Assembly: GCA_963823665.1 (NCBI GenBank)
Contig: CAWGMQ010000002.1
Location: 1-64,000, forward strand
Origin: an uncultured Planctomycetota bacterium
Lineage (GTDB): Bacteria; Planctomycetota; Planctomycetia; Isosphaerales; Isosphaeraceae
Reading direction: 5' to 3'
DNA length: 64,000 nucleotides
The notes under the pieces are model-generated. The model searched no databases, was not told the DNA's origin, and saw nothing but the letters and a program-made list of their open reading frames with translations. Shown here piece after piece: positions 13,628 to 31,170 of this stretch. The translations under genes were made by a program, and so were the position numbers. Numbering within the stretch: the stretch's first letter is position 1; every line of letters begins with the position of its first letter.

Positions 13628-13669
13628 GCCTTGAGATCAGGAAGCGTGTCGCGACGACCGAAGCTTACA
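13628..13669 (-). promoter_or_regulatory. Island motif copy A (TGTAAG-N16-ACGCTT-N7-TCAAGGC), upstream of the desaturase
   Basis: Read directly on the minus strand; putative ECF -35/-10. Confidence 0.75.
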
Positions 13670-13772
13670 GAAACCTCCAAGATTCCTGGGTACGACTTCG
13701 ACCCAACGGCCGGGCAGCCCTCGCCGTCGTGCAGGCCGACGGACCGATTCATTCGTTCTACTTTCGGGATGC

Positions 13773-13814
13773 TGCAAGGTTCTGGCCTTGACCGACGCTT
13801 TCATCTCTCAAGGC
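13773..13814 (+). promoter_or_regulatory. Island motif copy B (TGCAAG-N16-ACGCTT-N7-TCAAGGC), upstream of the PAQR/ABC operon
   Basis: Divergent from copy A, same spacing. Confidence 0.75.
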
Positions 13815-13903
13815 GGTCGAGCATCGGCGTGATGATCACCGAGGTGGTTCTCTCACAGCTCGACGCGGCCCAGACATCGCTGAATCCACAGGAGAGCTAA
13901 CCC

Positions 13904-14674
13904 ATGATTTCCCAAGCCGAAGTCGCTGAGTTGCCCGGCTTCGCAGCCGTGCTTCTGAACCGCGGAGCCGGCAGTTCTCGTCTCGGATGGACTGTCGACG
14001 GGGGGCTCGGAGCCCGCCGCCGCCGCGACGGGGAGTTCGCCCAGGATGAGATCGAAGAACTGCTCAACATCGCCACCCACGCCTTGGGACTTGTGCTGAG
14101 CCTGATCGGCCTGTATGGCCTTTCGATCATCGCTCGCATGGGCACGGCGCCCGGGACCGCGGCCGGGTGCCTCGCATATGGGCTGTCGCTGGTCTTCCTC
14201 TACGCGGCCTCGACCCTCTACCACGCGCGGCCGGCAGGACGTGGCAAGCGGGTGATGCTTCTATTCGATTATGTCGGTATTTACCTCCTGATCGCCGGAA
14301 CTTATACGCCCATCGTCTTGATCAGTCTGGGCGGCCAGTTGGGCTGGTCGCTCTTGGCGGCGGTCTGGGGGATCGCCGCCGTGGGGACGGGCTTCAAGGT
14401 CGGCCGGTTCCATCGCTTTGAAAAGGATTCCTCCATGCCCTACCTGGCGATGGGAGGGCTCTGGCTGGTCGCCGTCAGGGAGTTGATAGCTGTGGTGCCC
14501 ACAGCCGAATTCGCGTGGGTGGTGGCCGGCATGGCTTTTTACGTCGTCGGCTTCTGTTTCTACGCGCTGCCCGAGCGACGGTTCTTCCACGCCGTTTGGC
14601 ACGTCTTTGTGCTCGCCGGCAGCATCTCTCACTATCGCGCCGTCGTCGGCTGTGTGAGCACTCTGGTTGGTTGA
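13904..14674 (+). CDS. Hemolysin III / PAQR family membrane protein (TrhA-like)
   Basis: EELLNIATH, ASTLYH, DYVGIYLLIAGTYTP, FFHAVWHVFVLAGS..HY; about 7 TM. Confidence 0.92.
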   Translation: MISQAEVAELPGFAAVLLNRGAGSSRLGWTVDGGLGARRRRDGEFAQDEIEELLNIATHALGLVLSLIGLYGLSIIARMGTAPGTAAGCLAYGLSLVFLYAASTLYHARPAGRGKRVMLLFDYVGIYLLIAGTYTPIVLISLGGQLGWSLLAAVWGIAAVGTGFKVGRFHRFEKDSSMPYLAMGGLWLVAVRELIAVVPTAEFAWVVAGMAFYVVGFCFYALPERRFFHAVWHVFVLAGSISHYRAVVGCVSTLVG

Positions 14675-14738
14675 GCTCCGTTCTTGGTGACGACAAGGTT
14701 GGTGCCTGTAGTCCGTAGCGAGAGACGGGGGTAAGACG

Positions 14739-15866
14739 ATGGTGGACCTGGCGTGGAAGATGGCATGGCATGACAAGGTGCGGTTCTTGATCACCGTTTC
14801 GGGCGTGGGTTTCGCGGTGGCGCTGGTGCTCGTGCAAGTCGGGTTGTTCCTGGGGGTGCTGGGCAACGCGTCGGTGACGATCGAGCAGGCGGCGGCCGAC
14901 CTCTGGATCACCGCGCGGAACGCTCCCAATGTCGACCTGGCGAGCACTTTCCCCGAAACGTACGTCCAGCGCGTGCGGTCAGTCCCGGGCGTGGCACGCG
15001 CCGACAACCTGATCGTGTGGGTCATGCGGGTCACCCAGCCCAGCGGCGCTACCGAGGACGCCGTCGCTTACGCTCTCGAAGACTTCGGACGGTGGGGCCT
15101 GCCGTGGTCGACCCTGGAGGGCGACCCCGCCGACCTGAAGCGGGGCAAGTTCGTGATGATCGACGAGTCGGCCCGCAAGAGGTTTGGCGACGTCACGGTG
15201 GGCGACTACCGCGAGTTTTATGGCCAGCGGCTCAAGGTCATCGGCCTGACCAGCGGCGCCCTGTCGTTCACCACGATGCCGATCGCGTTTATCGACTATC
15301 GGCTCGCGCAGTCGATGATGCGCCAGGAGCTGCGCGGGCGAGCGACCTACATCCTCGTGAAACTCGAGCCAGGCACCGACGTGGACCGCGTGCGCCTTGA
15401 GCTGCGCCGCCGCCTGCCGCACAACGATGTCTGGACGCGTGACGAGTGGGCCGCCCGCTCTCGGGCCTACTGGACCGACACGACCGGGCTCGGCCTGAAC
15501 ATGGTGACGACCGTCGTGCTCGGTGCCGTCGTCGGTGTGATTGTGGTGGCCCAGACGCTCTACACCTCCACGGTGGAACATCTGAGCGAGTTTGCGATCG
15601 TCAAGGCCATGGGGGGAACAAATGCCGACGTGCTCGGAGTTGTGGCCAAGCAAGCCGCGCTCGCCGCACTGATCGGCTACGCCCTGGGCGCGGCACTCAC
15701 CTGCGCCGCCCGCCCGGTCGTGACGGCATTCGACTTGAAGCTGGATGTCAGTCCGGCATTTGCCGCGCTGGTGTTTCTGGGCACGGTGGGGCTGTGCCTC
15801 GCCGCGTCGACGGTGTCGTTCCGGCGAGTTGCGACCCTCGACCCGGCTGTCGTCTTCCGGGGATGA
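14739..15866 (+). CDS. ABC transporter permease, FtsX/MacB (DevC-like) family
   Basis: N-terminal TM, periplasmic ADLWI domain, EFAIVKAMG, three C-terminal TMs, ends LDPAVVFRG. Confidence 0.9.
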   Translation: MVDLAWKMAWHDKVRFLITVSGVGFAVALVLVQVGLFLGVLGNASVTIEQAAADLWITARNAPNVDLASTFPETYVQRVRSVPGVARADNLIVWVMRVTQPSGATEDAVAYALEDFGRWGLPWSTLEGDPADLKRGKFVMIDESARKRFGDVTVGDYREFYGQRLKVIGLTSGALSFTTMPIAFIDYRLAQSMMRQELRGRATYILVKLEPGTDVDRVRLELRRRLPHNDVWTRDEWAARSRAYWTDTTGLGLNMVTTVVLGAVVGVIVVAQTLYTSTVEHLSEFAIVKAMGGTNADVLGVVAKQAALAALIGYALGAALTCAARPVVTAFDLKLDVSPAFAALVFLGTVGLCLAASTVSFRRVATLDPAVVFRG

Positions 15867-15917
15867 GTGCCATGCCGGCTGAAAGTTTTTTCCCGCCAGG
15901 TTTCGGAGGGCGAGTCG

Positions 15918-16589
15918 ATGACCGTGTTGAATGCGCGTGACGTGACCAAGGTTTATCGCGAAGGCTCTTCGAGCGTGGCCGTGCTCAAAGGTGCCTCGCT
16001 GACGCTGGACCGCGGCGAGATCGTGGCACTCGAGGGACCTTCGGGATCCGGAAAGACGACGTTCTTGACGATTCTCGGCTGCATGCTCACCCCGTGCTCG
16101 GGCCGGCTCACGCTCGAGGGGCGTGATGTCGACCCCACGCGCCCCGACCTTCTCCCGGCGCTCCGTCGGGCGTCGATCGGGTTTGTGTTCCAGCAATTTC
16201 ATCTCTTCCCCGCCCTGACGGCGGCGGAGAACGTCGAGTACGTCTTGAACCTCAAAGGTGTGAAGGGGCTCGCGGCCCGGCACGAGGCGGCGCGTCTGCT
16301 CGGCAAGGTCGGTCTATCCGAGCGGGCCGCGTTTCTGCCGCGCGACCTCTCCGGCGGCCAGAAGCAGCGCGTGGCCATCGCCCGCGCGCTGGCGGGCCGG
16401 GCCCCGATCATCCTGGCCGATGAGCCGACGGCCAATCTCGACCACCATACCGGCTCGCAGGTCCTGGACCTGTTTCAAGGGTTGGCCCGGCGCGAGCAAC
16501 GGGCGCTCCTGGTTGTGACGCATGACCCGCGGGTGCGCACGATCGCCGACCGTGTCGTCCACATCCGCGACGGCGCGATTTGCAGCTAA
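15918..16589 (+). CDS. ABC transporter ATP-binding protein (LolD/MacB/DevA-like)
   Basis: [39 protein letters not shown]. Confidence 0.95.
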
Positions 16590-16630
16590 ACGCGATCCCT
16601 CTGGATTTCACCTGACGAGGAGACCGGCTC

Positions 16631-17588
16631 ATGACCGCTTTTCTGTTTTCCCGATTCTGGATGGGCACGTGCATGATCATCGTGGCGGCCGGGCTCGTTG
16701 CGAGCCCGAGCCTGACTGCGAAATTGTGGCCGCACCGTCTTTCATCGGACCACCTCCCAGCGCGAGACTCCGCCCCGGGCGTGCCACCCGATTCGGGGCC
16801 GGCCCGGGTCGTCGCCGAAGGCTGCGTGGTCGCGTACCCCGGCGCCGAGGTTGTGCTTGGAGCCGAGGCAGGCGGGCGGCTCGTAACGCTCGACGTCGCC
16901 GAAGGCTCGACCGTGCGCAAGGGGCAACTGCTCGCGGCGCTGAGCGCCGACGATCTGCGGGCTTCGCTCGCCGAGGCCGAGGCGAAGGAGGCCGAGGCCG
17001 AGGCCGACATCCGCTACTACGAGCGCGAGACTAGGCGCAACGAGGCGCTGGTCTCCCGCCGGGCCGCGTCCATTCAGGAACTGGATGCGATTCGCCACAG
17101 CCTGGAAACCGCCCGCGCCCGTCTTGCTGTCGCGCAGGCCCAGCGGGCGCGGAGCGGCATTGATCGCCAAGACCCGGATCATCGCCCCGCTCGACGGGGT
17201 GATCACGGCGCGGCACGTCCAGGAAGGCCAGATCGTCAGTGTCGGAGAACCAATCGTGACGATCGCAGATCTGGGCCGGCTGCGCGTCGAAGCCGAGGTC
17301 GATGAGTTTGACATCGCCCGCATCTCGCGCGGCGCCCGTGCCGTCATCACAGCCGAGGGCCACTCCGCAGCGCAGTGGCGCGCCACGGTGGAGCAGATCC
17401 CCGACGTTGTCACCGGCCGCCGCCTTCGGCCCCAGGACCCCGGCCGCCCGATCGATGCTCGCGTGCTCGCCGTGAAGGTCGCCTTCGGCGAGGCGACGCC
17501 CCTGAAGCTCGGCCAAAAGGTCGATGTGGAGTTCGACGCAGCCGGCGAGGGCTCGACAGCCGGAAAGCTCGTGTCCCCCGTTCGTTAG
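16631..17588 (+). CDS. HlyD/membrane-fusion (periplasmic adaptor) protein, frameshifted near 17152
   Basis: ORF 16631 gives V.EGSTVRKGQLLA plus a coiled coil; frame of ORF 17085 continues I.APLDGVI..., EAEVDE, LKLGQKVDV. Confidence 0.85.
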
Positions 17589-17640
17589 AACCGCATCGTG
17601 AATGTGACTTCTGGGCTCCGCCGAGTCGCTCTGAAGCATG

Positions 17641-17683
17641 TGTAAGATTCGAGCTGCAGGCCACGCTTCCTACTCTTGAAGGC
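17641..17683 (+). promoter_or_regulatory. Island motif copy C (TGTAAG-N16-ACGCTT-N8-TGAAGGC), upstream of the second ABC operon
   Basis: Closely similar to copy F over about 55 nt. Confidence 0.75.
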
Positions 17684-17728
17684 TGCTGTCGTTCTCTCTG
17701 CGGCTTGATACACCGAGGTAAGTGAGCG

Positions 17729-18871
17729 ATGTTTCTCCTGAAACTGGCCATCAAGATTTTGCTGCACGACTGTACCAAGACTCTGGCATGCCTGGCAGGT
17801 GTCTCGTTTTCGGTCTGCCTGGTAATGGTGCAGCGCGGGATCCAGCACGGCGCGATCGGGTGCAGCTCGGACGCGATCGAGCATTCGGCGGCCGATCTCT
17901 GGGTTCTGCCGAGCGGGACCTTGAATTTCGACAGCAGTTTGCCGCTGCCGGAAGGTGCGGAGTATCTCGTACGCAGCGTGGCCGGAGTCGAGCGGGTCGA
18001 GACGCTGATCGTCAGCTTCTCCGACTGGCGTCTGCCGACGGGGGGCATGCAAGCGGTCCAGGTCATCGGTTTCGAGGCCGACGGAGTGTTGTTCCGTCCC
18101 TGGAAGGTCGACCGAGGCGACGTCGAGGACCTGCGACCGGACCGGACGGTCTTCATCGATCGGAACGACCGCTCGAGGCTTCATGTCGATGATGTCGGTG
18201 CTGGCAGCGAGATCGGCAGCAGCATGATCGATCCCATGCGGGCCCGAGTCGTGGGCCTGACCCAGGGGATTCGCACGCTGCACTCGTGCCCGATCGTGTT
18301 CACCAACGTGAAGAATGCTCGCGCATACAGTCACTTCACCGAGCGAAAGTCGAGTTTCCTGCTCGTACGCGTGGCGGCCGGGTGCGACGCGAACGTGGTC
18401 CGGAAGGCGGTCGAAACCCACGTCTCGTTCGTCGAATGCCTGACCCAGGAAGAGTTCGGTGCCCGGACGCGAAAGCATTGGGACGAGCGAACGGGCATCG
18501 GCGTGATCCTGACCGTGACCGCCTTGATGTCGGTATTCATCGGGGTCGGCGTTCTGGGAATGCTCCAGTATCTCTCGACGCTCGAGCAGATTCATGAGTA
18601 TGCGATGCTCCGAGCACTCGGAACACCGAACCGCCGGGTCGTGGGGCTGATCGCCATTCAAGGGCTGTTTCTGGGCGTAACCGGCGTCGCCGTCGGCGTC
18701 GGCCTGACAGAGCTCACCGAGCTAGGTCTGAACGGCCGCGTGAATATGGTTGTCACCGGGGCGATCATGCGTGAAGTGTTTTTCGGGTCCCTGCTGTTGA
18801 GCGTCGGGGTGTCGCTGTTTTGTGCTATCAAGGTGCTGCTCACGAACCCAGGCCTTGTTTTCAAGGCGTAG
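17729..18871 (+). CDS. Second FtsX/MacB (DevC-like) ABC permease
   Basis: ADLWVL, EYAMLRALG, ends NPGLVFKA; same layout as 14739. Confidence 0.9.
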   Translation: MFLLKLAIKILLHDCTKTLACLAGVSFSVCLVMVQRGIQHGAIGCSSDAIEHSAADLWVLPSGTLNFDSSLPLPEGAEYLVRSVAGVERVETLIVSFSDWRLPTGGMQAVQVIGFEADGVLFRPWKVDRGDVEDLRPDRTVFIDRNDRSRLHVDDVGAGSEIGSSMIDPMRARVVGLTQGIRTLHSCPIVFTNVKNARAYSHFTERKSSFLLVRVAAGCDANVVRKAVETHVSFVECLTQEEFGARTRKHWDERTGIGVILTVTALMSVFIGVGVLGMLQYLSTLEQIHEYAMLRALGTPNRRVVGLIAIQGLFLGVTGVAVGVGLTELTELGLNGRVNMVVTGAIMREVFFGSLLLSVGVSLFCAIKVLLTNPGLVFKA

Positions 18872-18898
18872 AGCCGCCTGAGAGGAGTAGAGTGGACG

Positions 18899-20976
18899 AT
18901 GACGCGAATCGAACTTATTGATGTGAATATGGTCTACCAGACCGCCGGCAACCCCGTTGTGGCCATCGACCACGTGTCGTTGCAACTGGATCCGGGCGAG
19001 ATTGTCTTATTGGTCGGGCCTTCGGGCAGCGGCAAGACCTCGCTCCTTTCAGTTCTCGGCTGCATTCTGCGTCCGACCTCCGGACAGGTCTGGATTGGCA
19101 ACGTCGATGCGGCCCACGTAAACGAAGTGCGCCTGTCCGAGCTCAGGGCGCGGAATTTTGGATATGTGTTTCAGCATTATAATCTCTTCGACGCACTCAC
19201 GGCGCGAGAGAACGTGGAGGCGGCGCAGCGCATGAAGTTCGGCCGGGGGCCAACCGTTCGTGACGACGCGTCACGGTTGCTCGATCGCGTGGGTCTGGCC
19301 AACCGGTCCGAGCACAAACCCCAGGCGCTCTCCGGAGGCCAGTGCCAGCGGGTGGCGATAGCCCGAGCGCTCATCGGCAGCCCTGCGGTGATTCTCGCCG
19401 ATGAACCGACCGCGGCGCTCGATACCGAGAATGCCCTCGACGTCATGAAACTGTTTCGCAGATTGGCCCACGACGACGGCCGCATCGTCGTCATGGTCAG
19501 CCACGACCAGCGGCTCGAGAAATTTGCCGATCGTGTTCTGCGCATGGAGGACGGTCGCTTGATGTCGACAAGGACGGAGGGCTCGCGCCCTTGCATTCCC
19601 GTGCCGGAACCCGTCGCGATTGCGCTCGAAAACGCCGCCGGTGACGGGCGCTCGCTGCCGCCTGGCGACGGGGCCTCGCCGGAAACCGCGGGTGCGCAGC
19701 GGGCCGACTATGGGCAGGGCGCATTGCGCTTGAGCCCACCCCACGATCCGGACCTGATCGACTCCGGCGCCTTGTCGTCGCTCGGTGTGGTGAGGAATGC
19801 GGCATCCGGGACGTCGTTGCCCTCCGCAGCGCCGCGGGCGGCCCGGACGGGGCGTCGGTTCCCCCGGCGCGCCGGCCTGGTGCTCCTGAGTCTGCTGGTG
19901 GCATGCGGGTGGCAGCTCCGATTGCACTCCGGCGAGCATCGCGCGGACGGCTCGAGCGAGGCGCAGGTCCCGCAACCGAAGCGCGTATGCCCCTCGGTGG
20001 CCGCACTCGGGAAGGTCGAGGCCCGGCAAGGCTTGATGAACCTGTCGATCGCGCTGCCCGGAATCCTGGCGAAGGTCTATGTCGAAGAGGGCCAGTGGTT
20101 CGAAAAAGGCCAACTGCTTGCGGAGCTGATCAATGATGATTTGATCGCGCGCGTCGACATTGCCACGCACGAACTGACGCAGGCCGAGGCGCGTCTGGAG
20201 CTGCTGGCGCTCGGGTCTCGTAAGGAAGAGATCGACGAGGCGAGAGCCCAGGTCGAGGGCTTGAACGCGCAGCACGCCTATCTGACGAACCTCAAGCGGA
20301 TGCGGGATCGGCTCTTCTCACGGAGAGCCGCGTCGCAGGAAGAAGTGCTCGAGATCCAGTCGCGCGTTAACGTGAACACCAAGGACCTTGAAGCCGCGAC
20401 GGCCCGATGGGAACGGCTCAAGGTGGGTCCCCGCGGGCAAGAGATCGCCGGGGCAGAGGCGGCGGTTCGCGTTGCCCGGCGCGGCTTCGCGAGGCGACGA
20501 TCAGTCACGAACGGAGCCGGCTCAAAGCGCCCCGCGCGGGGTGCGTCTTGCGGCTGCATCGCAGGGAAGGAGAAAGCGTCGCAGGCACCGATCAGACCCC
20601 CGTTCTGGTCGTGGCCGACCCGCGCGAGCTCGTAATTCGCGCCGAGGTCGACGAGAGCCAGGCGCGACTGGTCCGCGAAGGACTGGAGGCCTCCGTATCC
20701 ATTCCCGGATATGAGGGCATTGCCTCGACCGGGACGGTCCGGCGCATCTCCGACACCATGGGCCGGAAGGTTATCCATTCCGACGATCCGCTCGAGAACG
20801 TGGACTCGCGCGTGCTGGAGGTCATCGTCTCGCTCGAGGAGCCCGGCTCCCTTCGGATCAATCAGCGTGTGAACGTGTCCATCCACACGGAGTCGGCACC
20901 CGTCTCGGGATCATCGCAGCGGGCCATGCCTCCACGAGTGGTCCCCGATCTCGAACCAAAGACGAGGTACGAATGA
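18899..20976 (+). CDS. ABC ATPase fused in frame to a HlyD/MFP domain; frameshift near 20479
   Basis: [24 protein letters not shown]; ~100-aa low-complexity linker; TM; VEEGQWFEKGQLLAEL; frame of ORF 20407 continues LKAPRAGCVL...RAEVDE...LRINQRVNV. Confidence 0.8.
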
Positions 20977-21639
20977 GCATTCAACGCATGCTGCAGAAAA
21001 AGAAGACGTGCCTTCCGCCCGGCGTGCGATGACCTGGAGGGCCGCCAATTGCTTTCGTCTGCCCTTCTGCCGCAGGTATCCAAGGGACCCGGTGGGAAAC
21101 CAACCGGGCCGGCCATCGCTGCTTTCAACGACAAGCTCTACATGGCCTGGGTCGGTCACGGTGAAGGGACCGAGCGCATCGCGATCTCGTCGTCGTCCAA
21201 TGGCGGCCAACGGTTTGACACGTTGGACTTCCTCCCCGAGACCAGCGGTTCGGCTCCGGCGCTCGCGAGCTTCGACGGGCGCCTCTACATCGCATGGGCA
21301 GGGCCCGGTCACCACCTCAACGTCGCGACGTCGTCCGATGGCGTGACCTTTGGCACGAAGGTCACGCTTCCAGAGACCAGCTCTGCCGAGTCTCACATCA
21401 GTCCGGCGCTGGCCAGCTTCCGCGGTCGCTTCTTTCTCGCGTGGAAGGGCACCGATAGCCGCCTTAACACCGAGTGGTCGTCCGATGGCCTAACCTTCGG
21501 CGGCAAGGTCATCTACTCGGCAACCAGCCATAAGGAAACCGGCCCGGCGCTGGCCAGCTCACCCGTAGCACTCTCCATGGGCTGGTTGGGGCCAGGGTCG
21601 AACGGAGTTTACAAGGCCCAGGGCATCGCTTCCGCCTAA
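20973..21639 (+). CDS. Propeller-repeat paralog P1 (shortened copy of P4); +1 frameshift in the A-run near 21000
   Basis: ATG overlaps the MFP stop (ATGA); removing one A restores MSIQRMLQKRRRAFRPACDDLEGRQLLSS; near-identical to 25413 minus 288 bp. Confidence 0.75.
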
Positions 21640-21836: not shown

Positions 21837-21878
21837 TGTAAGGTCCGAGGGTGAAGGCACGCTTTTTACTCTCAAGCC
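21837..21878 (+). promoter_or_regulatory. Island motif copy D upstream of P2
   Basis: TGTAAG-N16-ACGCTT-N7-TCAAGCC, 121 nt before the ATG. Confidence 0.75.
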
Positions 21879-21957: not shown

Positions 21958-22917
21958 ATGAGCATTCGACGTCTCCCGCACACGAGCAAGCGCGCATTCC
22001 GCCCGGCGTACGACGACCTGGAAGGTCGGCGATTGATGTCGTCGTTAGGCGCAACGGTGAACGACTCATCCGCGCCGGCCATCGCTGCTTTCAAAGACAG
22101 GATCTACATTGCCTATTACAATGTCCTCCTACAAGGTCCCCTCCGATTGCAGTCCGCGACCGATAACTCCAAGGCCTTCGACAACCGGATTGACCTCCCT
22201 GCGAAGAGCCTTACAACTCCGGCGCTGGCCGTCTTCGATGGACGCCTCTACCTGGCCTGGACAGGGAACAACAAAGCTCACGACGTCAACGTCGCGTCGT
22301 CATCCAATGGCGTGAACTTCGGCAACGTGGTCACCCTCCCTGAGAGCAGCATCGACGGTCCGGCGCTGACCACGTTCGACGGACGCCTCGACATCGCCTG
22401 GACGGGGACCAATCAACAGCTCAACGTCGAGTCGTCGTCCAATGGCGTGAACTTCGGCAATAAGGTCACCCTCCCAGATTCCAGCGATGCTGCTCCGGCG
22501 CTGACCGAATTCCAAGAGTCGTCCGGCGCCGAAGACCTCGAGATCGCCTGGAGGGGGACCGATAGGGATCACCACCTCAACGTCGCGTCGTCATCCAATG
22601 GCGTGACCTTCGGCAACGTGGTCACCCTGCCAGAGACCAGCAGTGCCGATACCTTGTCCACTTTCAAGTCCAGTCCGGCGCTGGCCAGCCTGAGCGGACG
22701 CCTCTACATCGCCTGGAAGGGGACCGATAAACACCTGAACTCCGAGTGGTCGTCAAATGGCGTCGACTTCGGCAACAAGGTCACCTACGATGCGACCCCC
22801 GGCGCGGCCGGTCCGGAGCTGGCCAACGTCGGCGGCGTATCAATGGACATGGCCTGGTCGGGGAACCAAGGTGCGGCGCTCGATCGGCACCACTTCATGG
22901 ACATTTTCATTCCCTAG
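21958..22917 (+). CDS. Propeller-repeat paralog P2 (LEGRRLMS leader plus ~6 repeats)
   Basis: GAGG RBS; MSIRR..KRAFRPAYDDLEGRRLMS; repeats PAL..FDGRLY.AW.G....LNV.SSSNGV.FGN.V.LPE. Confidence 0.88.
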   Translation: MSIRRLPHTSKRAFRPAYDDLEGRRLMSSLGATVNDSSAPAIAAFKDRIYIAYYNVLLQGPLRLQSATDNSKAFDNRIDLPAKSLTTPALAVFDGRLYLAWTGNNKAHDVNVASSSNGVNFGNVVTLPESSIDGPALTTFDGRLDIAWTGTNQQLNVESSSNGVNFGNKVTLPDSSDAAPALTEFQESSGAEDLEIAWRGTDRDHHLNVASSSNGVTFGNVVTLPETSSADTLSTFKSSPALASLSGRLYIAWKGTDKHLNSEWSSNGVDFGNKVTYDATPGAAGPELANVGGVSMDMAWSGNQGAALDRHHFMDIFIP

Positions 22918-23284
22918 TCGTGTCACGTCGATCTTGAATCGACGTGCTTGCACGATCGACGGCTGATTCTCGGAGGAGTCGCGGGCTGGGAAGGCGAGCT
23001 TCTGCGCCGGCTGGCTGACGGAATGGCCCGACCGCACCGACGTTATGTCGCAATTCGATGAGTGATCTGTGGAGAATATCACGCTGGCTCGCTCCGCAGT
23101 GCGGAGTACAGGGGTTGAGGTCGGCAAAGGCCAGAACGGGGGTAACCGCCCCACGGCCCACCCGACCTCGACCAATGTTCCACGACAAGCCGCTTGCCGA
23201 CGCGGTCGTCGCCCTTGGCCAGCACGGCGGCGACGGTCGCCCAGCGATTGGGCTGAGGTGGCACCGAGGAATCGCGCAGGTCTC

Positions 23285-23326
23285 TGAAAGGCTTGAGGGC
23301 CGGCGTACGCTTCTTACTTTCAAGGC
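23285..23326 (+). promoter_or_regulatory. Island motif copy E upstream of P3
   Basis: TGAAAG-N16-ACGCTT-N7-TCAAGGC, 121 nt before the ATG. Confidence 0.72.
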
Positions 23327-23405
23327 CGCTATCGTTCTTGGGGTCGTCGTAGCGAGCCGGACATCCACGATTGAACCCCAGTCTCAGGCCCAATACGAGG
23401 AACCC

Positions 23406-24371
23406 ATGAGCATTCGACGCAATCCGCCGAAAAGCAAGCGAGCGTTCCGCCCCACGATCGACGATCTGGAGGGGCGGCGACTGATGTCGTCGGCCATGGT
23501 TCCGCGAGGTCCCACGCCCGGAGATATTAACGCGCCATCCGCGCCGGCCATCGCTGCTTTCAACGACAAGATCTACATGGCCTCAGTGAATGGCTACCAG
23601 GGCGTTCCCTTCGAAATCGAGTCCTCGTCCGACGGCGGCTTGACCTTCGGCAACAAGGTCGACCTCCCTGAGAAGACCGAGTCATCTCCGGCGCTGACCG
23701 CCTTCGACGGACGCCTCTACGTCGCCTGGAGAGGGGACAATAGCTCGCACCAGGTCAACGTCGAGTCGTCATCCAATGGCGTGGACTTCGGCAATAAGGT
23801 CCTCTTCCCTGAGAACACCATCGGCAGTCCGGCGCTGACCGTCTTCGACGGACGGCTCTACGTCGCCTGGACGGGGACCGATCACCACCTCAACGTCGAG
23901 TCGTCATCCAATGGCGTGAACTTCGGCAATAAGGTCACCGTGCCTGAGTCCAGCGGTGCCGGTCCGGCGCTGACCGCCTTCGGTGCAGACCTCGAGATCG
24001 CCTGGGCGGGGACCGATAAGGATCACCACCTCAACGTCGAGTCGTCATCCAACGGCGTGAACTTCGGCAATAAGGTCACCCTCCGTGAGTCCAACAGTGC
24101 CCCGGAGCTGGACGTACGGCCCGCTCCGGCGCTGGCCAGCTTCAACGGACGTCTCTACATCGCCTGGAAGGGGACCGATGAGCGCCTCAACGTCGAGTCG
24201 TCGTCCAATGGCGTGGCCTTCGGCCAGAAGTCCATCTATTCGCGAAGCTCCCAAGATACCGGTCCGGAACTGGCCGACGTCGGCGGATCACTCGACATGG
24301 CCTGGACTAGTGAGACTAATCCTCACGTCGTCCATCAAGTCATCGCTATCGCTGGCGCTACCAACACATAA
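23406..24371 (+). CDS. Propeller-repeat paralog P3
   Basis: Same leader and repeats; closest to P7. Confidence 0.88.
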   Translation: MSIRRNPPKSKRAFRPTIDDLEGRRLMSSAMVPRGPTPGDINAPSAPAIAAFNDKIYMASVNGYQGVPFEIESSSDGGLTFGNKVDLPEKTESSPALTAFDGRLYVAWRGDNSSHQVNVESSSNGVDFGNKVLFPENTIGSPALTVFDGRLYVAWTGTDHHLNVESSSNGVNFGNKVTVPESSGAGPALTAFGADLEIAWAGTDKDHHLNVESSSNGVNFGNKVTLRESNSAPELDVRPAPALASFNGRLYIAWKGTDERLNVESSSNGVAFGQKSIYSRSSQDTGPELADVGGSLDMAWTSETNPHVVHQVIAIAGATNT

Positions 24372-24481
24372 AGGCCCGCCATCGATCTCCATCTGCCCGG
24401 CCGCGGCGAGCACCATTCTTCGGAGCGCGCGTGATCGAAACTTGCGCGCTGGGTCGGAGACGTCTCTATCCTCCTGGAACT

Positions 24482-24543
24482 CGACCGCTGGGGGCGTACC
24501 GACCTTTGAGGACAAGGTGCTAGAGCGTGCCGTCCTGATCGTT
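24482..24543 (+). pseudogene. Short remnant of a group II intron-type reverse transcriptase
   Basis: Translates, with one slip in a G-run, to RPLG-VPTFEDKVLERAVLIV, matching the RT motif RPLGIPT..D...Q.A. Confidence 0.6.
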
Positions 24544-24578
24544 CCGTTTGAGTCAATCCTGCCGAAGAGGGGCCACCC

Positions 24579-25109
24579 ATGACACGATCGTTGCTCCGCG
24601 TCGCCGCTATCCTGGTCATCACCGCCGTCCCTGCGCGGGCCGGTTCGGTCGTCTACGACTTCATGGAGGCCGGCATTGCCCCTCACCCCGGCGATGTCGG
24701 TGCGGTCTTGGCGTTCGCGTCGCCGCCGGCCTCGCCGGTTGCGGGGTGGACCACCTCGAGTACTGCCGATGTTCTCGCCTTCCAGATCATCGACTCCGCC
24801 ATCGCGCCGGCCGGATCGTATTCGCCGGACCTCGCTGCGACTGTCGTATCGACGACGGGTGCGATGCTCGACTCTGGGAGCATCATCGGCGGGCTGAACC
24901 ACGTCGCGATCGAGACGTTCATCGTCTCGGGGAGCGGAGAGAGCCTCATCGTGAATCTCCAGGTCGGGTCGGGCGTGCGCGGCGACTGGTCGCTGGCGCT
25001 CAGTGGGGCGGTCCCTGAACCGTCCTCGCTGTTCATGGCCGGCACCGCCGCCGCGGTCGGCCTCGCCGTCGCCTCGCGTCGGCGATCGAGTCGGCATCAT
25101 CAGAGTTGA
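24579..25109 (+). CDS. PEP-CTERM sorting domain protein
   Basis: Signal peptide ending PARA-G; C-terminal VPEPSSLFMAGTAAAVGLAVASRRR. Confidence 0.9.
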   Translation: MTRSLLRVAAILVITAVPARAGSVVYDFMEAGIAPHPGDVGAVLAFASPPASPVAGWTTSSTADVLAFQIIDSAIAPAGSYSPDLAATVVSTTGAMLDSGSIIGGLNHVAIETFIVSGSGESLIVNLQVGSGVRGDWSLALSGAVPEPSSLFMAGTAAAVGLAVASRRRSSRHHQS

Positions 25110-25290
25110 CCCATGATCGCCGAAGCCGATCTCGCCGACTTGCACGGCTGCGCACCCGGACCGCCCCACGTCATCAGCGCGCCGCATTCCGCGAAGCTGT
25201 TGTATGCGAGTGGTCAACTGGCCGGGAGAGAGTCAGCTGGCTGGCGGGGGTCCGAGCGTCCACGCCGCACCCGTGAATCTCCCTGGTCTC

Positions 25291-25333
25291 TGTAAGGTTC
25301 GAGCAGCGGGCTACGCTTCCTACTCTTGAAGGC
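25291..25333 (+). promoter_or_regulatory. Island motif copy F upstream of P4
   Basis: TGTAAG-N16-ACGCTT-N8-TGAAGGC, 122 nt before the ATG. Confidence 0.75.
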
Positions 25334-25412
25334 TGTTGTCGCTCTTGCGGTCGTCGCAGCCGGCCAGACGCCGATGATCTAACCCCGCTTTCGAACCGAA
25401 GACGAGGAGCCC

Positions 25413-26366
25413 ATGAGCATTCGACGCGTCCCGCAGAAACGGCAGCGCGCTTTCCGCCCAGCATGCGATGACCTGGAGGGCCGCCGCCTGCTTTCGTCTG
25501 CCCATCTGCCGCATATATCAAAGGGGCCCGGTGGAAAACCAACCGGGCCGGCCATCGCTGCTTTCAACGACAAGCTCTATATGGCCTGGGTCGGTCACGG
25601 TGAAGGGACCGAGCGCATCGCGATCTCGTCGTCGTCCAATGGCGGCCAAAGGTTCGACACCTTGGACTTCCTCCCCGAGACCAGCAGTTCGACTCCGGCG
25701 CTCGCCAGCTTCGACGGACGCCTCTACATCGCATGGACAGGACCCGGTCACCACCTCAACCTTGAGTCGTCAGAAAATGGCGTGAACTGGGGCGATAAGG
25801 TCACGCTCCCCGAGAGCAGTAACGAGGCTCCGGCCTTGACCAGCTTCGACGAACGCCTCTACATCGCATGGACAGGGTCAGACCCCGCACACCACCTGAA
25901 TGTCGCGTCGTCCGCCGACGGAGAAACCTTTGACGATACGGTTACACTCCCTGACACCAGCGATGCCGGTCCCGCCCTGGCCGGCTCCAGTTCCGGCGGT
26001 GGACTGGCGATCGCCTGGACGGGCACCGATAAGGACCACCACCTCAACGTCGCGACGTCGTCCGATGGCGTGACCTTTGGCACGAAGGTCACGCTTCCAG
26101 AGACCAGCTCTGCCGAGTCTCACATCAGTCCGGCGCTGGCCAGCTTCCGCGGTCGCTTCTTTCTCGCGTGGAAGGGCACCGATAGCCGCCTTAACACCGA
26201 GTGGTCGTCCGATGGTCTAACTTTCGGCGCCAAGGTCATCTACTCGGCAACCAGCCATAAGGAAACCGGCCCGGCGCTGGCCAGCTCACCCGTAGCACTC
26301 TACATGGGCTGGTTGGGACCAGGGTCGAACGGAGTTTACAAGGCCCAGGGCATCGCTTCCGCTTAA
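25413..26366 (+). CDS. Propeller-repeat paralog P4
   Basis: MSIRRVPQKRQRAFRPACDDLEGRRLLS plus ~6 repeats. Confidence 0.88.
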   Translation: MSIRRVPQKRQRAFRPACDDLEGRRLLSSAHLPHISKGPGGKPTGPAIAAFNDKLYMAWVGHGEGTERIAISSSSNGGQRFDTLDFLPETSSSTPALASFDGRLYIAWTGPGHHLNLESSENGVNWGDKVTLPESSNEAPALTSFDERLYIAWTGSDPAHHLNVASSADGETFDDTVTLPDTSDAGPALAGSSSGGGLAIAWTGTDKDHHLNVATSSDGVTFGTKVTLPETSSAESHISPALASFRGRFFLAWKGTDSRLNTEWSSDGLTFGAKVIYSATSHKETGPALASSPVALYMGWLGPGSNGVYKAQGIASA

Positions 26367-26468
26367 GATGCAGAGCCACCCATTGAACGGTAGGAAGGCC
26401 ATCTACTTCGGCCGGAACGGCGACTTCCATGTCGAGCCGTTCCCCTTCCGCTGACAAGGAGTGGTGCC

Positions 26469-26534
26469 ATGCGCGTCGGCGGAATCCTCGAAGCCGCCCT
26501 GTACGTGGCCGACATCCAGCGTAACGCTCGATAG
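26469..26534 (+). pseudogene. 5' remnant of a VOC/glyoxalase-like gene
   Basis: AAGGAG RBS, then MRVGGILEAALYVADIQR and a stop; resembles the ILE(T/A)ALYV.D start of VOC proteins. Confidence 0.45.
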
Positions 26535-26768
26535 CGGCGCTTCGTCAGGCTCTCTGAGGCGGGTATTTCCTCACAGACGGTCTTCGCGCCATCCCAGTCC
26601 GCGGTGCAAGTGGGTGACCGTCAACGCATCCACCGCATCGCCACCAGGTCACATCCCAAAACGCCCACCGCACGCATCTCGTGCGCCCTGGTCTTCGCGC
26701 GAGGCCACCTCGCGAGCGAACGTGATCGGCCGATCTGAGTCAATCGTTCCAAGACTTCGGGCGGGTCC

Positions 26769-26811
26769 TGTAAGGTTCGAGAGCCTCCGCACGCTTCCTA
26801 CTGGTGAAGGC
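26769..26811 (+). promoter_or_regulatory. Island motif copy G upstream of P5
   Basis: TGTAAG-N16-ACGCTT-N8-TGAAGGC, 123 nt before the ATG. Confidence 0.75.
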
Positions 26812-26891
26812 CGCTGTCGTCCTCGCGAACGCCGAGGCCGGCTGGAACAGCCGCGGTTGATCCGAGCTCCCAAACCCAAGACGAGGAACCC

Positions 26892-28134
26892 ATGAACATT
26901 GAGCTCGCTCGACAGAAAAGCAAGCGGGCGTTCCGCCCGGCGATAGACGATCTGGAGAGGCGGCAGCTCATGTCGACCGCCCACTTCATGGTGCATGAGC
27001 TAGCGGAACCGGCGGTTGTGCACCTCAACCACGAGATCCCCCGCGCCGGGCACGGGGAGCATGCAGGCGACCGAACGCACGCACAACACGCCTCGCACGC
27101 GAACCAGCCAGGATCTCGCACGACGCGGAGTGATTCGACTGTGCAGGCACCTCAGGTCGGCTTGCATTATGCACAAAACAGTACGCCCTCGCTCGTTCAA
27201 TATGACGACGAGCTCTGGACCGAAGAATCAAGTTACTGGGGCGGCCAGAATAATCGGATCGTCCTCGGAGTCTCATCCGATGGTGGCCAGACGTTCCATT
27301 TCAAACTTGGTCTCGTGCAGTATACCGAGACGACCGCACCACTCGCCGTCTTCGACGGGAATTTGTATCTCGCGTTTACGGGAACCGATAACCGACTCAA
27401 TGTTTATCCGAGCAGTCAAGGCGCTGACGGACTCCAGTTCAAGAACAAGGTCACACTTCCGGATACCAGCGAGTATGCACCGGCGCTGGCGGTAGGCAAC
27501 GAACTGTACATCGCCTGGACGGGAATGGATCACCACATCAACATCGAGTCGTCCTCCGACGGCGTGCACTGGGGAAACAAGGTCACGCTCCCGGTGACCA
27601 CCTGGGCTGCCCCGGCGCTCTCGTCGAACCCCAGCGGTGGTTTGACGCTCGCCTGGGTCGGCGACGACCCGGAGCACCACTTGAACCTCGAGTCGTCGCC
27701 CGATGGCGTGCACTGGGACAACAAGGTCACCCTCCCTGAGAACCACCACATTCGCCAAGAACAACGATAGCGCGAGTCCGGCCCTGGCCAATTTTAATGG
27801 ACGACTCTACATTGCTTGGAGAGGGAGCGATCCGGGGAAACACCTCAGCTCGGAGTGGTCGGCCGATGGCGTGCACTTCGGCGGCAAGGTCATCTACCCC
27901 CAGACAGATATTTACTCTTGGACAGGCCCGGCGCTCGTCAACGCGGGCAGCTTCCTGGGAATGGCCTGGGTGCACAATTCCACGGAATACGTCGAAGGGT
28001 TTCAGCACATCGCCACCGCGAATGGGCTCACTGATGCGCCGGCCATCGTTCAAGTCAGCCATAAGCTCCCGACGGCCGGCCACGGAAAGCCGGCAAGCGA
28101 TCAAGTGCACGCGCAACCGAGCGAGCTCAGGTAG
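26892..28134 (+). CDS. Propeller-repeat paralog P5 with His-rich linker; +1 frameshift near 27741
   Basis: KRAFRPAIDDLERRQLMS, His-rich segment and repeats; continues in the frame of ORF 27703 (SPALANFNGRLYIAW). Confidence 0.8.
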
Positions 28135-28167
28135 CGGTATCCGCCGGCAAGCTCTTCCGGGTCTTCA

Positions 28168-28836
28168 ATGGACCTGACATCACGCCTGGCAATTCCAGGG
28201 AATTCTTCGTCGAGACCTCATCCGACGGCGGCGCAACCTGGGCCAGAAGCGTCGTCATCCGATGGCGTGTACTGGGGCGATAAGACCATCCTCCCCGACG
28301 GAGGCTTCGGATCACCGGCGCTGGCCACCGCCAACGAACGCCTCGAAATCGCCTGGACGGGGACTGACACGGATCACCACATCAATGTGGCTTCGTCGCC
28401 CGACGGCGTGAACTCGAGCCGGCACGTCACCCTTCCCGAGACTAGCAATGCCGGTCCAGCGCTGGCAACCCTCAGTGGTGGAGGTGTCGAACTCGCCTGG
28501 GCGGGGAGCGGAAAGATGCCCCGCCTCAATGTTGCGATGTCGAACGATGGCTTGAACTTCACCCACACGGTCACGCTCCCGGACACGACTCGCCCCGAAA
28601 CCACGGCACCACCGGGACGAGCCATGAGCACTGCTCTCATCACCTTCGCCGAACCGCCGGCCTCCGCTAACGCACAGTGGTCGACGGACAGGAACGCAGC
28701 AATCCTCGACATCGAGCTTCTCGACCCTTCCCTCGGGCCGGTCGGCCGCTACGACAGGCAGAGAATGGGCTGCATCGCGGGCCTGGCCGGCATCGGCTAT
28801 CTCTGGCGCCGGCGGCGTCGGGCGCTGGCCGCGTGA
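28168..28836 (+). pseudogene. Degraded paralog P6: about two repeats joined to a PEP-CTERM-like TM/Arg tail
   Basis: SPALATANERLEIAWTGTD.., GPALATLSGGGVELAW..; ends MGCIAGLAGIGYLWRRRRR without VPEP; no leader. Confidence 0.6.
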
Positions 28837-28876
28837 CGGCCGGAATGGTCTGGGCCGGCTTCAGGTTGGAATCATC

Positions 28877-28919
28877 TGTAAGGTTCGAGCGTCAGGCGAC
28901 GCTTTCTTCTCTCGATGGC
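28877..28919 (+). promoter_or_regulatory. Island motif copy H upstream of P7
   Basis: TGTAAG-N16-ACGCTT, 120 nt before the ATG. Confidence 0.75.
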
Positions 28920-28996
28920 TCGGTCGTTCGCGCGGGCTCGCCATCCGCGACGCGGCGACGATCGTTCGCGTATCTCAAACCAAAGACGAGGAAACC

Positions 28997-29953
28997 ATGA
29001 GCAACCGACGCATCCCGCACACGAGCAAACGCGCATTCCACCCGGCGTACGACGACCTGGAGGGGCGGCGACTGATGTCGTCGGCCGCGGTTCCGCGAGG
29101 TCCCGCGCCCGGAGATATTAACGGACCATCCGCGCCGGCCATCGTTGCTTTCAACGACAAGATCTACATGGCCTCAGTGAATGGCTACAGCGGCGTTCCC
29201 TTCGAGATCGAGTCCTCGTCCGACGGCGGCTTGACCTTCGGCAACAAGGTCGACCTCCCTGAGAAGACCGAGTCATCTCCGGCGCTGACCGTCTTCGACG
29301 GACGCCTCTACGTCGCCTGGAGAGGGGACAATAGCGCTCACCAGGTCAACGTCGAGTCGTCATCCAATGGCGTGGACTTCGGCAATAAGGTCGTCTTGCC
29401 TGAAAACACCATCGGCAGTCCGGCGCTGACCGTCTTCGACGGACGGCTCTACGTCGCCTGGACGGGGACCAACCACCAGCTCAACATCGAGTCGTCATCC
29501 AATGGCGTGAACTTCGCCGATAAGGTCACCGCGCCTGAGTCCAGCGATGCCGGTCCGGGGCTGACCGCATTCGACGGAGTCCTCGAGATCGCCTGGGCGG
29601 GGACCGATAAGGATCACCAGCTCAACCTCGAGTCGTCATCCAATGGCGTGAATTTCGGCAATAAGGTCACCCTCCCTGAGAAGAACAGTGCCCCGAAGGC
29701 GGCCGTACAGCCCGCTCCGGCGCTGGCCAGCTTCGACGCACGTCTGTACATCGCCTGGAAGGGGACCGATGGGCGCCTCAACTTCGACTCGTCGGCCAAT
29801 GGCGTGGCCTTCGGCCGCAAGACCCCCTATTTGCAAAGCATCGAAAGTACCGGTCCGGAGCTGGCCGACGTCGGCAGATCACTCGACATGGCGTTGACTA
29901 GTAAGACGAATCCTCACGTCGTCCATGAAGTTGTCACTATCTCTCGCGCTTGA
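28997..29953 (+). CDS. Propeller-repeat paralog P7
   Basis: KRAFHPAYDDLEGRRLMS plus ~6 repeats; highly similar to P3. Confidence 0.88.
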   Translation: MSNRRIPHTSKRAFHPAYDDLEGRRLMSSAAVPRGPAPGDINGPSAPAIVAFNDKIYMASVNGYSGVPFEIESSSDGGLTFGNKVDLPEKTESSPALTVFDGRLYVAWRGDNSAHQVNVESSSNGVDFGNKVVLPENTIGSPALTVFDGRLYVAWTGTNHQLNIESSSNGVNFADKVTAPESSDAGPGLTAFDGVLEIAWAGTDKDHQLNLESSSNGVNFGNKVTLPEKNSAPKAAVQPAPALASFDARLYIAWKGTDGRLNFDSSANGVAFGRKTPYLQSIESTGPELADVGRSLDMALTSKTNPHVVHEVVTISRA

Positions 29954-30011
29954 GGACAAGGTGCTGGAGCGTGCCGTCGTCAAGGTTCTGGAAGCTGTCT
30001 ACGAAGCCGAA
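29949..30011 (+). pseudogene. Second group II intron-type RT remnant
   Basis: LEDKVLERAVVKVLEAVYEAE; shares TGAGGACAAGGTGCT.GAGCGTGCCGTC with 24507-24534. Confidence 0.65.
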
Positions 30012-30421
30012 AGCGTCGTGTTCGCAGGCAAGGGCAAGCACAGGCACGTCGCGGGCTTCCAACTGGATTTCAGCGAGGCACTTGATGCAAAGTGCGCCGG
30101 CGCCGCCGCGAATTACATCCTGAGTCGAACGGTTCACGAGAAAGGGCGGTCGCTGGCGCTTTCGGTGCCCTTCAGGGTCGTTCAAAACGCGGCGGCCGAG
30201 ACCCGTCGAATTGCAGTTGCGACGTCCGACCACTTTTGCCGGCGGAGGGGGAGCTCTTGGTAAACGCGCAGCCGCCCAACGGAATCACAAGTCGCTCGGG
30301 CGAGTATCTCGATGGCGACGATCTGGGCGTTCCGGGTAACGATGCAACCTTCGTCATCGGCCGCGGGGCAGCCAGCATCGTCGCACCCACGATCCACGAG
30401 CCGACGCCAGCCGCACCTTGA
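30012..30421 (+). pseudogene. Remnant of the C-terminal Ig-like domain of a large surface protein
   Basis: FQLDFSEALDA..A..AANYIL..., then a frame change to GELLVNAQPPNGI...LDGD..GVPG.DATFVI; no start. Confidence 0.45.
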
Positions 30422-30459
30422 TCAGAGAAGCATGTTCCCGTCGCGTCGTCATCGTCTCG

Positions 30460-30487
30460 TGTAAGGTCGTAAACCCCGGCCACGCTT
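30460..30487 (+). promoter_or_regulatory. Island motif copy I (TGTAAG-N16-ACGCTT)
   Basis: Exact boxes and spacing; 311 nt upstream of the truncated gene at 30771. Confidence 0.6.
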
Positions 30488-30770
30488 TATATCCCGATGA
30501 GAGACTCCGCACTCCATGAAGTCGAGACGCGGCTGATCGAGTAAGCAAAGATCAATGCAAGCCTGCTGCTGTCCCGGCCGGGCACGCGGCACCGGGTCCG
30601 CGTTTTCGCGCCGCAAACCGCACAACTTAAATCCCGTTGCATGGGCCAAGCGGGCCTGGTGGTACCGCTCCGCGCAGATCGGAGCGCTTTCGGAGCTTCA
30701 GCCAAGGGGCATCCCAGGAATTCTCTGCGTAACACCCACAATTCACGAGCCGAACCGAAGGGAAATCACC

Positions 30771-31043
30771 ATGTTCACGTCGCGTCGTAATCGCCGTGAT
30801 GCCAGGGCCGGCAATTGCAATTCCCGGCGCACACGACGGACCTTTGCGCTGGAGCCCCTGGAGGAACGCGTCGTCCTCTCGCCTACGGTCTACACGGTCA
30901 ACACGAGCGCCGACGGCACGCAGAGCGGCACCCTGCGCTCGGCGATCATCCAGGCCAATGACAATACGAATATTGCCGACGCTCGCCGGTCGCACTCACT
31001 TCCAAGCCAAGGCACCGTTCAATCGGCTGTCCCGAGTGCGTGA
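30771..31043 (+). pseudogene. Truncated paralog of the adhesin N-terminus
   Basis: MFTSRR...LEPLEERVVLSPTVYTVNTSADGTQSGTLRSAIIQAN matches the start of 31246, then similarity is lost. Confidence 0.7.
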
Positions 31044-31142
31044 AGTCATCGCACCACGCTGCCTTAAGTCCGACTCCTGAGACACTCGCGACAAACAATT
31101 TCGTCACAGAATGTTCTTGATTTCAGATTTTCATGCGGACTG

Positions 31143-31170
31143 TGTAAGGTCCGAGAGCCTCGACACGCTC
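31143..31170 (+). promoter_or_regulatory. Island motif copy J (TGTAAG-N16-ACGCTC), upstream of the giant adhesin
   Basis: 103 nt before ATG 31246. Confidence 0.72.

Follow-up and report, generated by a model that had tools for sequence, protein, structure and literature searches.

Planctomycete genomes carry about 40 extracytoplasmic function (ECF) sigma factors each, many of them paired with kinases (PMC7826278). Within the ECF classification, the supplement describes ECF62 as a planctomycete group whose +1 gene encodes a protein kinase that carries a zinc finger at its N-terminus, one transmembrane helix, and WD40 repeats (Casas-Pastor et al., 2021; PMC7826278). Its promoter motif was reported as not conserved, and the classification text gives neither a target promoter nor a mechanism (PMC7826278). 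Here, we describe a repeated bipartite element, TGTAAG-N16-ACGCT(T), in the first 64,000 nucleotides (nt) of contig C2 (CAWGMQ010000002.1) of the 16.46-Mb genome of an uncultured Isosphaeraceae bacterium (GCA_963823665.1, G000); this whole stretch is termed the window. All of the above ECF62 traits were present in a sigma factor and kinase encoded beside the repeats. We place at about 0.93 the probability that the repeats are ECF promoters of this ECF62-like system, with TGWAAGG(TT)-N14/15-[AC]CGCTT as the putative -35 and -10 elements and a predicted transcription start ~6-9 nt past ACGCTT, at or just before T(C/G)AAGG. The adjacent sigma factor (11697-12278) is very probably their main reader, and a paralogue encoded on contig C8 probably also reads the island promoters. 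An ECF promoter had been proposed in a sequence-only reading of this DNA, to which the present analysis adds a named cognate and homologues carrying the same motif at a fixed position and orientation. The features of the sigma-kinase locus were:

11697..12278, minus strand: ECF sigma factor of 193 amino acids (aa), ECF62-like
8092..11598, minus strand: membrane Ser/Thr kinase of 1168 aa
11407..11598, minus strand: class I zinc anti-sigma (ZAS)-like domain of the kinase, H33-x3-C37-x2-C40 plus H8, a predicted binder of sigma region 4
11652..11679, minus strand: promoter copy preceding the kinase gene (TGTAAGG..GCGATC), orthologous by position to the promoter that is conserved between sigma and kinase
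12383..12391, minus strand: putative housekeeping promoter of the sigma gene, extended -10 TGCTAGAAT, ~105 nt before the ATG

Comparison with described systems revealed likenesses to several of them. The designation follows the described architecture and was kept as ECF62-like because ECF59 and ECF217 also have +1 kinases. The locus differs from the ECF62 description in having a conserved motif downstream of the sigma gene and on the opposite strand upstream, and in a zinc finger that is predicted to behave as an anti-sigma domain (PMC7826278). The best PDB sequence match of the sigma factor was Streptomyces ShbA of ECF40 (9ISN, E 8e-12), whose promoter CGTAAC-N16-CGATGA is similar in geometry to TGTAAG-N17-CGCT here and which has V at the equivalent of residue 175 and T at -34; however, ShbA is actinobacterial, lacks an anti-sigma factor, is autoregulated, and combines C at -31 with R at the 174-equivalent where G and Y174 occur here (PMC12019637). 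The same helix positions read G-35, -34, and -31 in Escherichia coli sigmaE and Bacillus subtilis SigW, and a T-rich run likewise follows the box, whereas their AAC core is AAG here and S/T at 172 is V (PMC1540707, PMC6713349). In Myxococcus DdvS-DdvA, a gene island is similarly controlled through a membrane anti-sigma factor that has a cytoplasmic zinc domain and a large periplasmic repeat domain, although DdvA carries TPR-CHAT and no kinase and ddvS is transcribed from its own promoter (PMC11506125). Unlike DdvA, the present protein has a kinase between zinc domain and membrane, a WD40 sensor, and envelope genes as targets. In ECF43, EcfP is paired with the Ser/Thr kinase PknT but lacks the acidic DAED motif and needs phosphorylation there (PMC8999054), in contrast to the sigma factors here, in which both positions are acidic in 127/127 rows.

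Eight exact matches to TGTAAG-N16-ACGCT were found in the window, all within 13643-31169 (13669(-), 17641, 21837, 25291, 26769, 28877, 30460, and 31143), compared with a mean of 0.01 and a maximum of 1 in 100 shuffles. Two one-mismatch copies, at 13773 (TGCAAG) and 23285 (TGAAAG), completed the ten that the sequence-only reading had listed over 17.5 kb, and its weaker copy at 11679(-) was also present, preceding the kinase gene with TGTAAG and the second box GCGATC. All ten were intergenic and faced a start codon 60-103 nt past the second box, in agreement with the sense orientation claimed for them; for the copy at 30460 a ribosome-binding site and similarity to the next gene point to 30771, ~280 nt away, as the likelier start. 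Mean pairwise identity among the ten was 0.94 in the first box, which extends to TGTAAGG(TT), and 0.97 in ACGCTT. The spacer had been described as constant in length and variable in sequence, but its sequence is not free, its identity being 0.45-0.65 versus 0.34 upstream (flanks overall 0.34-0.38). The T[CG]AAG[GC]C tail downstream of the second box and the upstream ACC..GAATC element (13669, 21837, 23285, and 25291) were counted in 7/10 and 4/10 copies, respectively, as earlier stated. Short paired boxes with a constant spacing of 16-17 nt and with CG in the -10 box are the layout of an ECF promoter.

The evidence that carries this assignment comes from homologous sigma factors. A total of 131 sigma records were collected, leaving 127 after removal of the partial or duplicate rows L001, L040, L059, and L092, which are still included in the box-placement counts and absent from later ones. 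Allowing at most one mismatch within 150 nt past the sigma stop or 300 nt upstream, TGTAAGGT was found downstream of the sigma gene in sense at 51/68 loci (antisense 0/68) and upstream on the opposite strand at 54/67 (sense 7/67) for sigma factors 52-67% identical, compared with 4/34 downstream and 5/34 divergent upstream below 52% identity, all of these raw counts being inflated by near-identical loci and shared ancestry. The divergent box started 61-67 nt from the sigma ATG in 47 of 64 cases, and a second box followed TGTAAGGT in 130/135 matches under a permissive rule, with a spacer of 15 (77) or 16 (53) and never 17. The second box varied by subclade, being CGCTT in that of the window, CGTTT in the large one, and mostly xGATT in a third, and CGCT-type boxes stood at all six other distinct sigma factors at least 68% identical. 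The two promoters of one locus shared the -35 hexamer in 35/46 cases (permutation mean 24.0) and the variable -10 base in 42/46 (permutation mean 27.3), an agreement reached for either element by 0/20000 permutations; such joint change at two distinct cis sites is what would be expected if one trans-acting factor read both. More distant sigma factors, mostly with I175, had a different motif between sigma and kinase, GA[AC]A[AG]-N15-17-GCA[CT][TC] (sense 15/32, antisense 0/32, near clade 0/76), defined on the same sequences in which it was later counted.

Covariation between sigma residues and the -35 box was consistent with direct reading of the motif. Residue 175 was the top column for -35 positions 3-4, with a mutual information of 0.605 against 0.285 for the next. 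Valine accompanied TGTAAG, methionine TGTTAG or TGTGAG, isoleucine TGAAAG, alanine TGTCAG, and serine TGCAAG. In the 79 of 102 rows used for the pairing of residue and box and for its tree-corrected test, 52 paired V175 with TGTAAG, 19 paired another residue with another box, and eight were discordant; rows lacking the motif were left out, together with L214, L188, L165, L167, and L189, where region 4 is frameshifted or missing. The combination of I175 and TGAAAG occurred in two separate subclades (L141, L153). Counting the register from G171 and R179, residue 175 aligns with sigmaE S172 and SigW T171, which contact base -34, and R179, found in 123/127 sigma factors, aligns with R176, which reads G-35 (PMC6713349, PMC1540707). 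Y174 replaces the R/K that reads C-31, where this box has G, and the helix register is supported because the alignment to ShbA agrees. One sigma factor, L118, was placed in the tree away from L111 and L124, yet has region-4 sequence and a TGCAAG box in common with them; its region 4 was possibly swapped together with the downstream promoter.

A number of points weigh against the reading of the repeats as promoters of this sigma-kinase system, in addition to the permissive box rule, the shared ancestry, and the circular definition of the outgroup motif already mentioned. The association of residue 175 with the -35 box was not significant in a tree-corrected test with four well-supported independent pairs (3.0 in the same direction, 0 opposite; median p 0.25 with quick IQ-TREE and p 0.5 with FastTree), and a search for a residue code for the -10 box found none, its top columns being scattered clade markers. 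The closest relatives of the window sigma factor carry N82 and CCGCT boxes, whereas it has H82 itself, and the second box of the window kinase promoter is GCGATC and not the ACGCTT of the ten copies. Judged from their flanks, the ten copies are not ten independent origins, and independent support is that of other genomes. For the proposed mechanism, the score of the modelled complex described below may be driven by likeness to solved ZAS-sigma complexes, and the part of the kinase in releasing the sigma factor is one that we infer.

In pattern searches of the 16.46-Mb genome the motif was not more frequent than its reversed-pattern control, either as exact (10 versus 8) or as one-mismatch matches (96 versus 186); the signal is the clustering of 8/10 exact matches inside 17.5 kb. 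The claim that no copy lies outside the island therefore held for the window and failed for the genome, which has two further exact matches. One (C11:300855) is upstream of a duplicate desaturase gene and the other (C11:963114; G000:C11:963088-963114 = L010:1500-1527(-)) is beside another ECF-kinase pair. The latter copy is divergent and 70 nt before a PF07638-family ECF gene that is followed by a kinase gene, a geometry as in the studied sigma clade. A one-mismatch copy on C8, TGAAAG-N16-ACGCTT, accompanies a paralogous ECF gene. Across 61 genomes the exact motif matched in 21, approximately the control level, with a cluster only in G030, and a looser pattern in four genomes gave a count below its control and was uninformative. 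G030, from another genus, has a homologous island with seven motif copies, the orthologous sigma-kinase pair (sigma 78%), both exporters, and four propeller genes, at 84-97% nucleotide identity to the window over kilobases; its copy between sigma and kinase is a good match, with a CCGCTT kinase promoter. Sigma homologues at E<=1e-45 occurred in 42/120 family genomes and 6/300 phylum-wide, while propeller homologues at E<=1e-20 were detected in 3/121 family genomes; G001, a genome of the same genus that is 84% complete, had none. This patchiness, along with the identity to G030, suggests that the island was horizontally transferred.

The sigma factor retains the acidic sigma2.2 residues D44/D47 (D/E44 and D47 in 127/127 sigma rows) and has the recognition helix SVGAVYVAKSR (169-179); its nearest named relatives are titled Isosphaeraceae or other Planctomycetota. 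Searches of G000 gave 66 tblastn-type matches (E<=0.001) and, with the clade profile, eight at E<=1e-45, and so many paralogues leave room for cross-talk. In the loci of the clade, the ECF motif points away from the sigma gene or stands behind it, and a TAnn[AC]T hexamer was present 3-22 nt ahead of the sigma ATG at 50/81 loci compared with 1/81 in the control. This suggests leaderless, constitutive sigma transcripts from a housekeeping-type promoter. The sigma genes of the clade appear to be under housekeeping control and not to regulate themselves, which would account for the report of a non-conserved ECF62 motif. In the window, the putative promoter TGCTAGAAT was missed by a consensus sigma-70 scan, which over 11500-31400 returned one promoter-like site versus 2.9 expected. 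A terminator scan of the same region gave 18 terminator-like sites versus 13.1 expected, with none between 12278 and 12495.

The kinase comprises an N-terminal zinc domain, a Pkinase domain with intact catalytic motifs, one transmembrane helix (~aa 430-450), and WD40 propellers; predictions for such proteins place WD40 outside and the kinase inside (PMC11032199). The H-x3-C-x2-C signature was kept in 47/47 aligned kinase N-termini, as were H8, H33, C37, and C40 (first 60 residues), these 47 being a selection from 72 found. A Pfam scan of the single kinase sequence gave no match for the zinc domain, and a profile of the domain matched the anti-sigma domains of DdvA, RslA, and ChrR (E 7e-7 to 3e-6), with DdvA on top. 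The predicted complex of zinc domain and sigma factor scored 0.71 versus 0.00 for the best of three controls, a mark reached by 116/157 solved and 2/215 mismatched pairs and only roughly valid with the own alignments used here. Its interface covers sigma residues 169-185, the -35 recognition helix, and runs agreed in at least 97% of contacts with a partner predicted local distance difference test (pLDDT) of at least 81. The models and profiles make it likely that the zinc domain acts as an anti-sigma domain. An ECF43-type sigma factor, in which a phosphorylatable S/T motif takes the place of the acidic sigma2.2 motif, was considered and rejected, as the acidic residues are kept here.

Sequestration with kinase-triggered release is the most likely mechanism, because the zinc domain is predicted to lie on the recognition helix and the acidic sigma2.2 residues are kept. 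The sigma gene would be transcribed from its housekeeping promoter rather than its own motif, and the zinc domain is predicted to hold the product at the membrane, covering the -35 recognition helix. A periplasmic signal sensed by WD40 would then activate the kinase, the zinc domain or the sigma factor would be phosphorylated, and the sigma factor would be released. Comparison among loci strongly supports a subsequent step in which free sigma factor would fire the kinase promoter, in a feedback loop restocking the anti-sigma, and in the window would also transcribe the genes for the desaturase, the PAQR protein, two DevBCA-like exporters, lectin-like propellers, and a giant surface protein. 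Duplication of the leader module and recombination within leaders would have brought new genes under the same sigma factor. More tentatively, and as a whole with rather less than an even chance, one membrane protein might unite WD40 sensor, Ser/Thr kinase, and zinc anti-sigma into a distinct ECF62-like signaling module. In such a module a constitutive sigma factor might be freed when the kinase phosphorylates its own anti-sigma domain and might transcribe the kinase and divergent surface-protein genes through the residue-175/-35 code. Dozens of paralogues per genome might then form near-orthogonal cell-surface switches, and regulons might grow by copying a 120-150 bp promoter-leader module, while the inserted desaturase promoter may even have set up a positive loop that feeds back on the sigma gene.

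The strongest competing account, itself improbable, is that the ACGCTT copies are read mainly in trans by the C8 paralogue, the adjacent sigma factor having drifted towards CGAT boxes. The C8 paralogue is 71-73% identical, keeps N82, and has TGAAAG-N16-ACGCTT alongside, while the adjacent factor has a longer branch (0.22 versus 0.08 for G030), the GCGATC box before its kinase, and H82, which aligns with the ShbA residue H93 that contacts A-10. Against this account, the orthologous sigma factor of G030 (78%) adjoins the same island and has CCGCTT in its kinase promoter, and the adjacent pair has kept intact catalytic and zinc motifs. As changes at -10 and -9 were of minor effect in ShbA (PMC12019637), H82 need not exclude C. 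One motif copy on C11 has no such sigma gene nearby, hence some action in trans is needed in either case.

The remaining alternatives concern what the repeat is rather than which factor reads it. A recombination site or integron-like cassette boundary, with only secondary likeness to a promoter, would account for rearrangement joints between the window and G030 that fall inside leaders, such as the permease-2 block that splits a propeller leader and the 13773 promoter that stands before a different gene, and propeller leaders contain a weak inverted pair, GGTTCGAG..CTCGAACC, that extends over ~100 nt. However, the joints are outside the boxes, 30-60 nt further downstream, homologous recombination between repeated leaders suffices to produce them, no recombinase was recognized among the 39 window proteins scanned, and other genomes have two single copies at fixed places around the sigma gene that vary with it; this explanation is thus very improbable. 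Still less credible is a structured leader RNA or riboswitch. Conservation does continue beyond the second box in the T[CG]AAG[GC]C tail (7/10), but it peaks in the two short boxes of fixed spacing, the downstream similarity is missing from 30460, 31143, and 11679, and no Rfam match was obtained in 11500-31400 at E up to 1. The consensus fold of the nine alignable leaders was weak (-5.5 kcal/mol), and the covariation check that the sequence-only reading had proposed found none (covariation term +0.43). That reading had ranked leader RNA and recombination site below the promoter, and both fared poorly on examination. Equally hard to credit is that the copies are functionless relics of gene duplication, even with flanks common by descent in eight of the ten, as the boxes are 0.94-0.97 identical versus 0.34-0.38 for flanks, persist in copies with unrelated flanks, and are kept beside homologous sigma factors over many loci.

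The reading as ECF promoters leaves the question of how the window acquired ten of them. Upstream flanks of 13669, 21837, 23285, and 25291 were related (z up to 9.5), and downstream flanks linked eight copies, to which 30460, 31143, and 11679 were unrelated; the desaturase, hlyIII, and permease-2 copies shared flanks with the leaders of propeller paralogues (z 3-9). It had been argued that the motif is not merely a by-product of paralogue duplication. It does precede non-homologous genes, but the shared flanks indicate that eight of the ten descend from leaders that were duplicated and recombined, and the regulon is best described as having grown while a promoter-leader module was copied and recombined. 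The promoter at 13773, orthologous to a G030 promoter of a different desaturase, is now joined to hlyIII. The window desaturase and its promoter were duplicated on C11 at 91% nucleotide identity (window 12383-13715; G000:C11:299670-300907), and this C11 desaturase, with no cognate sigma gene alongside, is a likely distant regulon member. The window desaturase promoter itself is directed into the sigma gene, and the scan gave no terminator-like site in the DNA between them. The inverted pair GGTTCGAG..CTCGAACC (e.g., 25296-25400), with its first arm in the promoter spacer, has two invariant G-C pairs and few compensatory changes and is possibly due to chance.

Jogler 2012 and Wiegand 2020 are said to have defined planctomycete ECF groups. 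We found no account of a TGTAAG/ACGCT promoter in the literature; the motif may already appear in these two papers or in the logos of the ECF Hub, which may reduce its novelty. Neither TGTAAG nor ACGCT was found in the portion of the ECF classification supplement's text that was covered, and its logos are images. The promoter type itself is ordinary ECF biology, and the motif most likely points to previously unknown targets of a sigma family paired with membrane kinases. The analysis supplies a candidate promoter consensus for ECF62-like sigma factors, with a reason for its having been missed, and candidate regulons in the form of LExRxL surface proteins behind the divergent promoter. It also offers an alternative to the assumption that the sigma factor is phosphorylated directly and a naturally occurring set of sigma-promoter pairs in which specificity could be studied.

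The island copies face genes for a desaturase, for PAQR/HlyIII with a DevBCA-like exporter behind it, for another exporter, for five propeller paralogues, and for two proteins of the large-surface-protein type, arranged as follows:

12495..13571, minus strand: fatty acid desaturase, between the sigma gene and its divergent promoter
13642..13669, minus strand: promoter copy of the desaturase, pointing towards the sigma gene
13773..13800, plus strand: promoter copy, TGCAAG variant, orthologue of the sigma gene's ancestral divergent promoter
13904..17588, plus strand: PAQR/HlyIII (TrhA-like), DevC-like permease, DevA-like ATPase, and membrane-fusion protein (frameshifted in the assembly)
17641..17668, plus strand: promoter copy, left half of a propeller-gene leader joined to permease 2
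17729..20976, plus strand: second DevC-like permease and ATPase-membrane-fusion gene, frameshifted near 20480
20972..21639, plus strand: propeller paralogue, frameshifted, with an internal deletion
21837..21864, plus strand: promoter copy
21958..22917, plus strand: beta-propeller protein with LExRxL export motif
23285..23312, plus strand: promoter copy, TGAAAG variant
23406..25109, plus strand: propeller paralogue and PEP-CTERM protein (24579-25109, without its own motif copy)
25291..25318, plus strand: promoter copy
25413..26366, plus strand: propeller paralogue
26769..26796, plus strand: promoter copy
26892..28836, plus strand: propeller paralogue(s), in pieces
28877..28904, plus strand: promoter copy
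28997..29953, plus strand: propeller paralogue
30460..30487, plus strand: promoter copy before a truncated LExRxL gene (~30771-31043)
31143..31170, plus strand: promoter copy
31246..37604, plus strand: large LExRxL surface protein, in two frames in the assembly

Among the exporter genes, the devC and DevA models scored below their cut-offs and TrhA above. The permease-2 block (17729..20976) lies inside a split leader, the right half of which resumes near 20902. Within it, 18899-20976 encodes an ABC ATPase and an HlyD-like membrane-fusion domain in one frame with a long linker, and its frameshift is at the same site in the window (~20480) and in the G030 locus L039 (~19510) in slightly different contexts, being either a shared mutation or a systematic assembly error; in other split genes, the break sites differ between window and G030. 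DevC/ATPase-type exporters recur with the window sigma's subclade. In its closest paralogues (L043:2203-3605, L066:5127-7522), the promoter drives a STAS (anti-anti-sigma-like) gene, behind which a DevC-like permease and an ATPase are encoded.

LExRxL is an export motif of planctomycetes (PMC8567305) and was matched to that description by eye in the propellers and large proteins, while Pfam recognized neither the LExRxL leaders nor the propellers. An LExRxL-like motif lay within 900 nt downstream of the divergent promoter at 21/48 loci versus 3/48 on the opposite strand, other first genes there encoding DUF4915 and STAS proteins, and the sigma clade appears to control the cell surface. The propeller fold was nearest to PLL/PHL lectins (template-modelling score ~0.6, 15-20% identity; model pLDDT 78), which makes lectin activity only a lead. 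A further large LExRxL protein with Ig-like repeats (38918-42970(-)) is encoded just past the island without a motif copy. The large surface protein of the island contains choice-of-anchor Q, MBG, Ig-like, and RTX repeats, with eight near-identical ~81-aa MBG repeats followed by Ig-like and RTX repeats in 32847-37604.

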